Below, piece by piece: positions 21,937 through 25,325 of a DNA stretch of 64,000 nucleotides. Origin of the DNA: a virus (Duplodnaviria; Caudoviricetes); the IMG/VR virus record IMGVR_UViG_3300043427_002668; one strand, 5' to 3'. The translations under genes and the position numbers were made by a program. The number at the start of each line of letters is the position of its first letter. The first letter of the stretch is position 1. The notes under the pieces are model-generated. The model was not told the origin of the DNA and did not search any database. It saw only the letters and a list, made by a program, of their open reading frames with translations.

Positions 21937-22135
21937 AGAGGTAAGTGCTGATATTGGAGAACCTGACTGTAAGTTAGTTAAACCATTCACAGTCACTAAA
22001 GATAAAACATTAGAACCTTTCCTAATGGGTTATACTAAACAAGATACATTTATGATGAGTTCGGACAAGATTCTCACACTCTCTGATCCAACTCCAACAC
22101 TTCTTGAAAAATATGAGGATTTGATTAAGGAATGA
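21878..22135 (+). CDS. conserved hypothetical
   Basis: IEEVSADIGEPDCKLVKPF; coupled to the gp43 start. Confidence 0.7.
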   Translation: MKLIKVLLLTNNQILITQIEEVSADIGEPDCKLVKPFTVTKDKTLEPFLMGYTKQDTFMMSSDKILTLSDPTPTLLEKYEDLIKE

Positions 22136-23403
22136 GATTTTATACTAATGTTCAATTGATTGGAAATCAGTTTTTGGTTCGTGGGGTAGAAAATGGAAAA
22201 AGATTTGAAACAAGAGATGAGTTCTTCCCAACTCTTTATGTGAAAACTAAAAAAGATTCTAAATATCGAACATTAAGTGGCGAAGCAGTTGAACCAGTAA
22301 ATCCGGGAACAGTTCGTGACTGTCGTGAATTTTATAATAAGTATGAAAGTGTAGATGGATTTGAGATCTACGGAAATGACCGTTATATCTACCAATACAT
22401 TTCGGAAAAATATCCGGACGATGAAATTAAGTTTGATATCAGTAAAATCAAACTTGTAACTCTAGATATTGAGGTTGCATCAGAAGCAGGATTCCCTGAT
22501 GTAGAATCTGCATCTGAAGAAATCCTTTCTATCTCTATTCAGGATTATACAACAAAGAAGATTATTACTTGGGGAGTTAAACCATTCAATAACACCCGCA
22601 AGGATGTGACTTATCATCATTGCCCCTCTGAGTATGAACTTCTCAATCACTTCATCAATTATTGGATGGTGGATGTTCCTGATGTGATTACAGGATGGAA
22701 CATCCAGATGTATGACGTTCCTTATATCTGTAAGAGACTGAATCGTGTTCTTGGTGAGAAACTGATGAAACGGTTCTCTAACTGGGGACTTGTGACTGAG
22801 GGTGAAGTATTCATCAATGGACGCAAGCACACCACATTTGATGTAGGTGGTTTGACTCAACTTGACTATTTGGATCTTTATAAGAAATTTACTTATAAAG
22901 TTCAGGAATCTTATCGTCTAGATTATATTGCTGAAGTGGAACTGGGACAGAAAAAACTGGATCACTCTGAGTTTGATACATTCAAAGATTTCTACACCAA
23001 AGGATGGCAGAAGTTCATTGAATATAACATCATTGACGTAGAACTTGTTGACCGTCTGGAAGACAAGATGAAACTGATTGAACTTGCTCTGACGATGGCA
23101 TATGACGCAAAGGTGAATTATGCTGATGTGTTTTATCAGGTTCGTATGTGGGATAATATCATCTACACATATCTCAAGAAGAAGAACATTGTAATCCCCC
23201 CAAAGAACAAGACTAAGAAAGATGAAAAGTATGAAGGTGCTTATGTAAAAGAACCTATTTCTGGTATGTATGATTATGTTGTAAGTTTCGATTTGAACAG
23301 CCTTTATCCCCACCTTATTATGCAATACTCAATATCCCCAGAAACTCTTGTGAGTATGGATGATGTAAATAAGAGGATTGCAGAACTCGAAAGTATGCTA
23401 TAA
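22132..23403 (+). CDS. gp43: family B DNA polymerase gp43, N-terminal fragment (exonuclease + motif A)
   Basis: ExoI DIEV, ExoII GWNIQMYD, ExoIII YNIIDV and motif A SFDLNSLYP; stops 17 aa after SPETL. Confidence 0.95.
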   Translation: MRFYTNVQLIGNQFLVRGVENGKRFETRDEFFPTLYVKTKKDSKYRTLSGEAVEPVNPGTVRDCREFYNKYESVDGFEIYGNDRYIYQYISEKYPDDEIKFDISKIKLVTLDIEVASEAGFPDVESASEEILSISIQDYTTKKIITWGVKPFNNTRKDVTYHHCPSEYELLNHFINYWMVDVPDVITGWNIQMYDVPYICKRLNRVLGEKLMKRFSNWGLVTEGEVFINGRKHTTFDVGGLTQLDYLDLYKKFTYKVQESYRLDYIAEVELGQKKLDHSEFDTFKDFYTKGWQKFIEYNIIDVELVDRLEDKMKLIELALTMAYDAKVNYADVFYQVRMWDNIIYTYLKKKNIVIPPKNKTKKDEKYEGAYVKEPISGMYDYVVSFDLNSLYPHLIMQYSISPETLVSMDDVNKRIAELESML

Positions 23404-23411
23404 TATAAATA
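23404..23411 (+). promoter_or_regulatory. late promoter inside the gp43 insertion
   Basis: TATAAATA 19 nt before the endonuclease ATG. Confidence 0.65.
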
Positions 23412-23430
23412 GGATATAGATAGTTTATAA

Positions 23431-23970
23431 ATGAAAAGAGAGTATCCTATGTATGTTTATCAATACAAAGATGATGATAAAGTTTTTTATGTTGGTATGG
23501 GGCAGGGGTATAGAATGTGGGCTCACTTAAAACCAAGTTCTTATATGCCATATGATGCAAATTATCCATCTTTCTATGGTAAAATAAAATCTATTTTTTT
23601 GTCGGGAAGAGAACCATTTGTTGAAAAGATTTTTGAGGGAACAAAAAAAGAATGTTTAGTCTTAGAAGAAGAACTTATTGAAAAGTATAAATTGATAAGT
23701 GAAGGTGGAACACTTTATAATATTTCAAAAAAAAGTGGTGGTAGAGTAAAAGGTAAATCATATCCTATGAGTGAAAATACCCGTCAAAGGTATAGAGAAA
23801 CTATGAGACAAAATAGAACTTATAAAATTGAAAGTGAAGATTTGAGAAAATTGTATATTATTGAGAATAAGACAAGGAAGCAAATTGCCGAACATTATAA
23901 TTGTAGTGAAGTATTGATTAAACAAAGATTAAAAGAGTTTGGTATTAAAAAAATTACTAAAATACTATGA
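23431..23970 (+). CDS. GIY-YIG homing endonuclease splitting gp43
   Basis: YVYQY-x7-FYVGMG..YR, conserved E (LEEELI) and LYN; NUMOD3-like segment and C-terminal HTH. Confidence 0.85.
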   Translation: MKREYPMYVYQYKDDDKVFYVGMGQGYRMWAHLKPSSYMPYDANYPSFYGKIKSIFLSGREPFVEKIFEGTKKECLVLEEELIEKYKLISEGGTLYNISKKSGGRVKGKSYPMSENTRQRYRETMRQNRTYKIESEDLRKLYIIENKTRKQIAEHYNCSEVLIKQRLKEFGIKKITKIL

Positions 23971-25325
23971 ATAATAATATGTGGAAAGATGTTCGTCAAA
24001 TGTCTCCTCAAGAAATTAAAGAGGAATTGGAAGCACTTAAGAAAGTAAGAGAACTTTCTAATCAAGTGAATGTTGATAAACTTCTTAATCAAGAATTGGA
24101 TTTAGAACCTTTGCGAAAAGTCAATTTGACTATTACTGCAAACGGAGCACTTTATCGTAGAGTAAATGGTTTTCTTCCTGAACTGATGGAGAAGATCTAC
24201 AATGAACGTGTGATCTTCAAGAAGAAGATGCTTGCTGCAGAACAACAGTATGAGAAGACTAAAACAAAAGAGTTGGAAAAGGAAATTGCGCGATGTAATA
24301 ACATCCAAATGGCGAGGAAGATTCAGCTTAACTCTGCTTATGGTGCTATTGGCAATCAGTATTTCCGTTACTATAAACTAGCAAACGCTGAAGCGATTAC
24401 TCTTTCCGGTAAGGTTTCAATTCAGTGGATTATGAATAAGATGAACTCCTACATAAACAAAATTCTTAAAACAGATGGTGAAGATTATGTTATTGCTTCT
24501 GATACTGATTCTATCTATCTCAATATGGGTCCTTTGGTTGAAACTGTATTCAAAGGAAGAGAGAAAACTACTCAAGACATTGTTTCGTTCCTTGATAAGG
24601 TGTGTCAAGTGGAACTTGAAAAATATATTGAAAGTTCTTATCAAGAATTGGCGAATTATGTAAACGCTTACGATCAGAAGATGATTATGAAGCGTGAGTG
24701 TATTGCTGAACGTGGTATTTGGACTGCGAAGAAACGATACATTCTGAGTGTATGGGATAGTGAAGGTGTTCGATATGAATCACCCAAACTGAAAATCAAG
24801 GGTATTGAAGCAATCAAATCTTCTACTCCTGCTCCTTGTCGTAAGATGCTGAAAGAAGCATTTAATATTCTGATGAGTGGAAGTGAAGATGATATGATTC
24901 AGTTTATTGATGATTTCCGCAATAAATTTAAGAAATTACCACCTGAAGAAATCTCATTCCCACGTTCTGCGTCTGACGTTCAGAAATATACATCACACTC
25001 TCAAATTTATGTAAAGGGAACTCCGATTCATGTTCGTGGAGCACTTCTCTTTAATTATTATGTCAAAGAAAATAACCTGACTGGAAAATATTCTTTGATT
25101 CAGAACGGAGAAAAGATCAAGTTTGTTTACCTCAAGAAACCAAATACGATTCATGAGAATGTAATCTCATTTATTCAGGAGTTTCCCAAGGAACTGAATC
25201 TTGACAAATACATAGATTATGAATTACAATTTGAGAAAGCATTTCTAGAACCACTCAAAGTTATTCTTGATATTATTGGGTGGAATATGGAAAAGACAGT
25301 AAACCTTGATTCATTTTTTGCCTAA
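23967..25325 (+). CDS. gp43: DNA polymerase gp43, C-terminal fragment (motifs B, C, thumb)
   Basis: ANGALY, KIQLNSAYG (motif B), SDTDSIY (motif C) and KKRY; ATG overlaps the endonuclease stop (ATGA). Confidence 0.95.
   Translation: MNNNMWKDVRQMSPQEIKEELEALKKVRELSNQVNVDKLLNQELDLEPLRKVNLTITANGALYRRVNGFLPELMEKIYNERVIFKKKMLAAEQQYEKTKTKELEKEIARCNNIQMARKIQLNSAYGAIGNQYFRYYKLANAEAITLSGKVSIQWIMNKMNSYINKILKTDGEDYVIASDTDSIYLNMGPLVETVFKGREKTTQDIVSFLDKVCQVELEKYIESSYQELANYVNAYDQKMIMKRECIAERGIWTAKKRYILSVWDSEGVRYESPKLKIKGIEAIKSSTPAPCRKMLKEAFNILMSGSEDDMIQFIDDFRNKFKKLPPEEISFPRSASDVQKYTSHSQIYVKGTPIHVRGALLFNYYVKENNLTGKYSLIQNGEKIKFVYLKKPNTIHENVISFIQEFPKELNLDKYIDYELQFEKAFLEPLKVILDIIGWNMEKTVNLDSFFA

Follow-up and report, generated by a model that had tools for sequence, protein, structure and literature searches.

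Reassembly of enzymes that have been split by selfish DNA, where no splicing takes place, is an open question with essentially one worked example, the NrdA protein of Aeromonas phage Aeh1. The HNH endonuclease gene mobE breaks its gene into two parts, for NrdA-a and NrdA-b (Friedrich et al. 2007; Crona et al. 2011, PMC3045599). The tails that the Aeh1 NrdA polypeptides inherited with the mobE insertion are essential for activity, and they are needed for a later assembly step rather than for the first association of the halves (PMC3045599). Here, we analyze a second system, in a better understood enzyme: the family B DNA polymerase gp43, for which structures and assays of the RB69 and T4 proteins exist. 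In a 64,000-nucleotide stretch of viral DNA (Duplodnaviria; Caudoviricetes; IMG/VR record IMGVR_UViG_3300043427_002668), hereafter the window, gp43 is divided into two adjacent cistrons, gp43A and gp43B, with a putative homing endonuclease gene between them. The likely explanation, in our judgment, is that this cyanomyovirus makes its replicative polymerase as two polypeptides that would rejoin without a covalent link.

The locus resembles Aeh1 nrdA in that an essential T4-like phage enzyme is cut within its catalytic domain by a free-standing homing endonuclease gene, without intron or intein, and in that short C- and N-terminal tails at the break are inherited with the insertion. Assembly is non-covalent in Aeh1, as it is predicted to be here from sequence and a structural model. 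The Aeh1 tails are oppositely charged and act in the dimerization of heterodimers, whereas the gp43 peptides, which we call arms, are amphipathic helices without charge complementarity, and their origin can be traced to a contiguous insertion. Unlike the Aeh1 tails, the gp43 arms occur on dozens of divergent backbones, where the nucleases are interchangeable.

Natural splits of gp43 itself (43A/43B) occur at the fingertip in the T4-related phages 44RR, 25, 31, 65 and 133 (Petrov et al. 2006, 2010). In the accounts of PMC3061061 and PMC2988022, subunits of the 44RR/25 type co-purify and are active, and phage 25 carries a GIY-YIG endonuclease gene between the cistrons. Enzyme and arrangement in two adjacent cistrons are shared with the window, but the 44RR/25 break falls between two finger helices, whereas the break described here lies in the palm, after the motif A helix, at RB69 position 430/431. 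The Aeromonas-phage splits, which the initial annotation had invoked as a precedent, are therefore not one for the site, since those lie at the fingertip (PMC3061061). The fractured genes of Dassa et al. 2009 (PMC2677866), for example cyanophage gp41, likewise show the order N-part, endonuclease gene and C-part in replication genes of cyanomyoviruses in metagenomes, with a hairpin upstream of the endonuclease and one allele without endonuclease. Their products, unlike those considered here, trans-splice by means of intein halves of about 100 and 40 amino acids. Pfu polymerase engineered to be split at its fingertip, and the naturally split PolB of Methanothermobacter (PMC3061061), illustrate that family B polymerases tolerate production as two chains, but their sites differ, no mobile element is involved, and no added interaction peptides are described there; the breaks of Methanothermobacter PolB and of RM378 are at yet other sites.

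An endonuclease-fractured essential gene, non-covalent reassembly and terminal peptides are already known. What is new is that the break lies in the palm, that the arms have an origin that can be traced, that they have spread across backbones, and that the nucleases are interchangeable. A description of a cyanophage palm split was not found in the literature outside subscription journals, including the Global Ocean Sampling T4-like scaffold paper. Among 50,697 phage genomes, neither the insertion (blastn) nor the endonuclease reading frame (tblastn) had a match, and the N-terminal peptide of gp43B (tblastn) matched Synechococcus phage S-CAM7 only, so no deposited genome in this collection carries this split.

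Layout and conservation of the split gp43

The first cistron, gp43A, occupies positions 22132-23403 (423 amino acids, frame 1; + strand, as for all features below) and encodes the N-half of the polymerase, with the Pfam domain DNA_pol_B_exo1 and the first ~90 positions of DNA_pol_B (model positions 21-93). In a different frame, gp43B (23967-25325, 452 amino acids) encodes the rest of the palm, the fingers and the thumb, matches DNA_pol_B model positions 98-270, and is directly followed by uvsX (start 25325). ATG 23967 overlaps the stop codon of the endonuclease gene as ATGA. Since ~90 related C-halves start at MWKD, the true start may instead be ATG 23979 (23979-25325, 448 amino acids). Some relatives have GGAG or GAGG about 10 nucleotides upstream of the MWKD start, and one relative (P0136) must use the upstream start because its inner Met is replaced by Ile.

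In the closest cultured relatives, Synechococcus phages S-SM2 and S-SRM01 and Prochlorococcus phage P-SSM2 (~75% nucleotide identity), gp43 is a single 831-amino-acid gene. Alignment to these intact proteins maps the junction. The N-half follows them up to ...LYPHLIMQYSISPETL (ISPETL; end 23349) and then carries a tail of 17 extra residues, while the C-half begins with a head of ~29 additional residues (MWKD...ELSNQ, 23979-24065) and is homologous again from VNVDKLL (24066) onward. Not a single polymerase residue is lost. The break corresponds to RB69 gp43 I430/A431, in the palm, 19 residues past the motif A aspartate D411 and before the finger helices. The initial annotation had read gp43 as two open reading frames (ORFs) in different frames, broken after SPETL downstream of motif A and returning to polymerase at VNVDKLL behind a new head; the ORF list, the division of Pfam domains and the alignment agree with this. 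A T4-like family B polymerase in two adjacent same-strand cistrons, where relatives have one gene, is thereby confirmed.

The layout is not peculiar to the window. Fifty-one IMG/VR loci and 4 metagenome loci were fetched, of which 47 contain both ends of the break; the split layout is shared by about 47 metagenomic cyanomyovirus loci from many samples. A 1071-nucleotide contig in a public run, which may be the window's own source sample, spans 23139-24209 with zero mismatch, so the layout is not an assembly artifact. The gene neighborhood shows the normal synteny of a cyanomyovirus replication module, and no other polB gene was found in the 64-kb window.

Both terminal peptides are conserved. 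The tail (arm 1; VSMDDVNKRIAELESML, 23350-23400, 17 amino acids) has the core N-x-R-I-A-E-L-E-(S/K)-M-L, and its hydrophobic residues M409, V412, I416, L419 and L423 have the heptad-like spacing remarked on in the original reading. The head (MWKDVRQMSPQEIKEELEALKKVRELSNQ, 23979-24065, 29 amino acids) consists of arm 2 and an N-terminal extension of ~14 amino acids. A search limited to proteins of similar length returned ~33 metagenomic clusters of N-half relatives (423-429 amino acids, 73-98% identical to the window) with a common C-terminal end, V-x-x-x-(D/E)-(L/I/V)-N-x-R-I-A-E-L-E-(S/K)-M-L, present in every one of the ~33. The C-half has relatives in ~96 metagenomic clusters, mostly of 448 amino acids, which begin MWKDVR(K/Q)M(S/T)xxEIxEELEALKxVRELS. 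Tail and head are kept in every split locus. A resemblance of head MSPQEI to the SPETL segment was considered as an ancient duplication and dropped, the proline not being conserved among relatives.

Both peptides evolve under purifying selection. In Nei-Gojobori counts, made over 34 distinct loci and 31 distinct tail-head pairs, the ratio of nonsynonymous to synonymous substitution rates (dN/dS) was 0.22 for all 17 tail codons and 0.13 for tail residues 8-17 (dS 1.03 in both cases). For the head, the ratio was 0.18 over all 29 codons (dS 0.58), 0.25 over residues 2-14 (dS 0.47) and 0.15 over residues 15-29 (dS 0.67), and flanking polymerase codons gave 0.08-0.12 (dS about 1.0-1.8). Because synonymous sites are well diverged, the conservation of both peptides lies at the protein level and reflects neither recent spread nor overlapping DNA signals.

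Origin and spread of the arms

The two helices had been thought to be gained at the fracture. This view has to be given up, since homologous arms are continuous in intact gp43 proteins. In Synechococcus phage S-CAM7 (NC_031927), gp43 is a single 867-amino-acid gene that continues past SPETL with ITMDDLNIMI, a short loop and EKLEAMLQVRQLSGKINVYKVL, so that one chain unites the tail with the second half of the head. A search restricted to this region retrieved 25 further intact proteins of ~865 amino acids (P0242-P0266) with the same ~36-residue insertion at exactly the same position, and the next 40 residues are also of the same type as in the split form. The tail is homologous to helix 1 of this insertion (ITMDDLNxMI...) and head residues 15-29 to helix 2 (KLEAMxxVRELS). 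S-CAM7-type proteins differ from the split form in being one chain, with a loop of 6-7 residues in place of the stop codon, endonuclease gene and start codon, in an arm 2 that is ~14 residues shorter, and in belonging to a separate backbone clade. Only the last ~3 residues of the tail and the first ~14 of the head (MWKDVRxMSxxEI) are without counterpart in the contiguous form; relative to it, a conserved M-L has been added to arm 1 and ~14 conserved residues to arm 2. Tail and head are absent from most gp43, and these ~3 + 14 residues are unique to the split form.

AlphaFold2 predicts the insertion of a contiguous homologue as a helix (414-425), a six-residue loop and a second helix (432-447), with a local predicted local distance difference test (pLDDT) of 83-89; the two helices follow the motif A helix and precede the hairpin leading to the fingers. 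Judging from these homologies, tail and head are the two arms of what appears to be a pre-existing helix-loop-helix, a lineage-specific insertion into the palm. The break lies in its loop, now filled by the free-standing endonuclease gene. A pre-existing surface hairpin of this kind can predispose a site to harmless fracture, and the cultured phage S-CAM7, with both arms in one chain, offers a natural fused control. A local oddity at the same position was seen in P0110 (662 amino acids, from a metagenome), an otherwise insertion-less gp43 that has SPETLIGCKDILQQLLIKFLQKK where relatives have SPETLIDARHP...VDRIL; the pattern suggests either a short frameshift that soon returns to frame or a sequencing error.

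That the insertion came first, rather than arising by healing of a split gene, has a good probability. The reverse order, which we regard as unlikely, would have the endonuclease split an insertion-less gene, with the tails arising at that moment and the S-CAM7-type insertion being the scar of a healed, in-frame fusion. It concerns origin only and is compatible with the mechanism favored below. Deletions within the gap do occur, as one lineage is without most of its HNH gene, and re-fusion once the endonuclease has been lost is part of the model of Dassa et al. (PMC2677866). Healing would nonetheless need an exact in-frame deletion of stop codon, gap and start codon, and intermediates were seen in no locus. 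In addition, P0267 and P0268, the earliest branches of a deep separate clade, already have the contiguous insertion, as does the rest of that clade, and the insertion is more diverse (55-96% identity) than the split arms.

The distribution of the split loci is mosaic. In a tree built from the first ~365 residues of gp43, from which the 40 residues preceding the junction were omitted, the proteins with a contiguous insertion group in a separate, deep clade, and split N-halves are scattered among insertion-less backbones. On a maximum-likelihood tree of 98 rows, the split state requires at least 19 changes among 88 rows (20-30 in the first ten label shuffles), and a single clade of split N-halves is rejected by an approximately unbiased test (delta lnL, the difference in log-likelihood, 860; p 5e-41). 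Compared with its nearest insertion-less backbone, P0010, the window has an identity of 0.8-1.0 outside the junction stretch (N-half ~397 to C-half ~60-75), falling to 0.41-0.69 within it, whereas identity to split loci on other backbones holds at 0.7-0.9 in that stretch. The 40 residues that follow the head (VNVDKLL...FLPEL, 24066-24185), a putative co-conversion tract, have an identity to P0010 of 0.41, compared with 0.87-1.0 to either side, and are on average 65% identical to the contiguous-insertion clade versus 49% to insertion-less gp43. The cassette, together with ~90 amino acids of flanking polymerase, is found on many unrelated gp43 backbones, and the arms travel with the endonuclease across many phage lineages.

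This mosaic is as expected for, and indicates, homing with co-conversion from a donor in the insertion-bearing lineage, as far as sequence comparison can suggest a mechanism of transfer; general recombination within gp43 could contribute too. The unit that spreads among cyanomyoviruses would consist of arm 1, the endonuclease gene, arm 2 and ~40 residues of downstream polymerase, so each invaded gene would receive the break and the arms together. gp43 serves as a phylogenetic marker for cyanomyoviruses, yet this locus is mosaic, and automatic gene callers will for that reason report two fragments. The window sequence (22900-24500, runs X1, X2 and X5) was found mainly in freshwater metagenomes. 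Other gp43 alleles, whose contigs skip the cassette region, have ~16-28 times the depth of the cassette-bearing contig in the same samples, so potential recipient alleles co-occur with the cassette.

Assembly of the two halves

A heterodimer model, as had been suggested with the initial annotation, yielded a high-scoring complex with both terminal peptides on the inter-chain interface. The complex prediction for gp43A and gp43B reached an interaction prediction score from aligned errors (ipSAE) of 0.89 in 3 of 3 runs, versus 0.44 for the best control. Among solved complexes, 58 of 80 attain the mark applied to this score, as do 2 of 110 mismatched pairs, counts that are a rough guide in the present case, in which our own alignments were used. 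The runs agree in at least 98% of contacts, with a partner pLDDT of 90. In the tail, residues 407, 409, 412-413, 415-416, 418-420 and 422-423 are on the modeled interface, and in the head residues 2, 5-6, 8, 10, 13-14, 16-17, 20-21, 23-24 and 27. The interface residues of each arm lie on one helical face with i/i+3/i+4 spacing, and those of the tail include its hydrophobic positions. It is very likely that gp43 of this phage is a non-covalent two-subunit polymerase, as predicted.

The arms account for about 11 of the ~94 residues that chain 1 contributes to the interface and for about 14 of the ~139 from chain 2 (about 10-12%), the remainder being native contacts of palm, fingers and exonuclease. 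At this share they are more likely an accessory clasp than a device that reassembles the palm. We propose that the 17-residue tail and the 29-residue head probably pack on each other at the break, which would supplement the large native interface of the halves with a small clasp. Since the arms form the two neighboring parts of a single hairpin, packing of arm on arm is the simplest geometric reading; direct contact between tail and head, and a true coiled coil, would follow from it. It is reasonably likely that the arms contribute materially to assembly. The proposal that the two helices reassemble the palm non-covalently, in place of splicing, therefore stands in part: intein and intron are absent and the arms are selected and lie on the interface, but their share of that interface is minor.

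Several points weigh against an assembly role for the arms, or limit what the models can say for it. One known fold was cut in two, so the complex score may reflect memory of RB69-type structures. The output of the complex prediction lists interface residues without tail-head pairs, and contact between the arms is deduced from it indirectly. The AlphaFold2 model of the contiguous form, from a 20-row alignment, has a mean pLDDT of 55.5, and only its local secondary structure is usable. Covariation between tail and head over the 31 distinct pairs gave no charge swap and no convincing coupling; tail and head variants are reshuffled among loci, which makes this result uninformative. The tails of Aeh1 NrdA are dispensable for binding of the halves, so the gp43 arms, too, may matter for reasons besides clasping. 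Lastly, the RNA data that bear on splicing consist of two ~90%-identical contigs of a relative, colinear with DNA, from one small metatranscriptome, and are compatible with rare spliced forms.

Some of these points favor an account in which the native interface alone assembles the halves. The insertion would then be conserved for another job, such as replisome contact or palm tuning, and the endonuclease gene would sit in a tolerant loop. The insertion is conserved in a whole clade of intact gp43 and so has a reason to exist without a split, and ~88-90% of the modeled interface residues are outside the arms. Moreover, T4-like gp43 and Pfu polymerase reportedly work when split at the fingertip (PMC3061061), and Aeh1 tails are dispensable for heterodimer formation (PMC3045599). 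Set against this, the split form has lengthened arm 2 by ~14 conserved residues (MWKDVRxMSxxEI, dN/dS 0.25) and arm 1 by M-L, and the model places both arms on the inter-chain interface. We therefore consider it improbable that the arms have no part in joining the halves.

Restoration of a single chain, by RNA splicing, protein trans-splicing or translational bypass, is a further alternative, and phage polymerase genes often contain group I introns or split inteins. For the present locus it is extremely improbable. Intein halves would have to be longer than a tail of 17 and a head of 29 amino acids, and the residues at the junction (V/I after SPETL; S-x-x before VNVDK) include neither the required nucleophile nor His-Asn. 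Both peptides evolve as coding sequence, the gap varies from 171 to 1092 nucleotides with unrelated contents, and the metatranscriptome contigs of the relative are colinear with DNA across both junctions, a weak argument given possible DNA carry-over. A Pfam search of the halves and the gap ORF found no Hint or intein domain, and an Rfam search over 22800-24600 at E<=10 returned no group I intron, with chance snoRNA-like matches only. The Pfam result upholds the original statement that intein parts are lacking. A split intein was accordingly rejected (no Hint match, peptides of 17 and 29 amino acids, unsuitable junction residues), as was a group I intron (no Rfam model at E<=10, coding flanks, a 171-nucleotide gap variant). 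That the gene is simply broken, or the layout an assembly error, is scarcely credible: in its favor are the break itself and the fact that the search for a second polymerase covered the 64-kb window, whereas both halves are under strong purifying selection (dN/dS 0.08-0.12 in the flanks), 47 loci come from many samples, an identical contig exists in a public run, and a replication module of normal synteny contains the only polB of the window.

Returning to two subunits held by a native interface and an arm clasp, we tentatively entertain a further possibility, to which we give somewhat less than even chances. The cassette could be a mobile element with its own protein-level repair kit, in which co-conversion installs the break along with two helices that rejoin the halves non-covalently, making invasion nearly neutral with neither RNA nor protein splicing. 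If this were true, the arms would constitute a natural, minimal and transferable heterodimerization pair for split enzymes, and family B polymerases would in general tolerate a split at the site that follows the motif A helix. The arm pair is also a candidate tag for engineered split polymerases.

The endonuclease, the gap and its hairpin

The gene between the halves (23431-23970, 179-amino-acid ORF) appears to encode a protein with a GIY-YIG-type nuclease domain at the N-terminus and, C-terminally, a helix-turn-helix module for DNA binding. It matches Pfam LEM-3_GIY-YIG with an E of 3.3e-5 (24.4 bits, below the curated cut-off of 27) and PHROG 314 'homing endonuclease' with an E of 2.6e-9. 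The motifs YVYQY...FYVGMGQGYR, and later E and YN, are present, and YVY...FYVGxGxGxR can be aligned to a solved GIY-YIG protein in the PDB in a weak match (E 0.23). On these weak but consistent matches, it is a putative homing endonuclease, free-standing and of the GIY-YIG type. It is 83% identical to the gap ORF of a related locus (L004). Because relatives start at MYVYQY, its start may be 23449, not 23431.

The contents of the gap differ among loci, so that natural variants with different nucleases, or none, exist. A gap of ~570-575 nucleotides (658 in one case) with a GIY-YIG-type gene is found in 8 loci including the window. HNH genes are present in 35 loci in all, in gaps of ~610-615 nucleotides or, accompanied by cargo in the form of a Dam methyltransferase or a small zinc-ribbon ORF, of 773-1092 nucleotides. 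In six loci, the gap is 171 nucleotides long and retains only the last ~50 codons of an HNH gene. These six (L027, L029, L039, L041, L042 and L044; gap ~2329-2501) represent one genotype, at least 99.95% identical across six metagenomes, and both halves are intact (427 and 448 amino acids) in 5 of 6, those that reach far enough. This genotype argues against a role of the intervening sequence in splicing and, as both halves are kept intact, the split polymerase persists without a working endonuclease. The nuclease would thus be exchangeable (GIY-YIG or HNH, with a shared DNA-binding module) or free to decay while the split polymerase stays.

The polymerase gap behaves like an intergenic cargo site. 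Its Dam-type DNA adenine methyltransferase (151 amino acids, Pfam Dam, E 2.3e-30) lies behind the HNH gene at L015:1401-1856, and is also present in L021, L056 and L057. A helix-turn-helix module of ~45 amino acids is homologous between the GIY-YIG-type (window 23431-23970) and HNH-type (L005:5301-5885) endonucleases, C-terminal in the former and N-terminal in the latter, and it looks like one DNA-binding module was recombined with two nuclease scaffolds.

In T4 I-TevI and Aeh1 mobE, early transcripts do not permit translation of the endonuclease, whereas those from a late promoter do. In the window, a predicted RNA hairpin (23402-23457) begins at the gp43A stop codon, and its 3' arm spans the probable endonuclease start ATG 23449. 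A T4-late-promoter-like TATAAATA (23404-23411) directly follows the stop codon and overlaps the 5' arm. Folding of 23380-23460 gives -15.2 kcal/mol (z score -2.69), a value equaled or bettered by 3 of 200 shuffles, and 8 of 8 GIY-YIG-type loci have the hairpin. By analogy, hairpin and TATAAATA may have a regulatory role like that in I-TevI and mobE. In HNH-type cassettes the hairpin is another one, whose loop contains TATAAATA, and some compensatory changes occur among loci.

Fingertip splits of gp43 were also encountered in other cyanomyoviruses (L060:3001-6308 and L061:3001-5937), with N-halves of 487-520 amino acids; together with the palm break, they give cyanophage gp43 at least two independent split sites. 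In L060, a DUF559/Vsr-like endonuclease gene lies between the fingertip-split halves. In L061, the halves are separated by two small ORFs only, and the contiguous helical insertion is also present.

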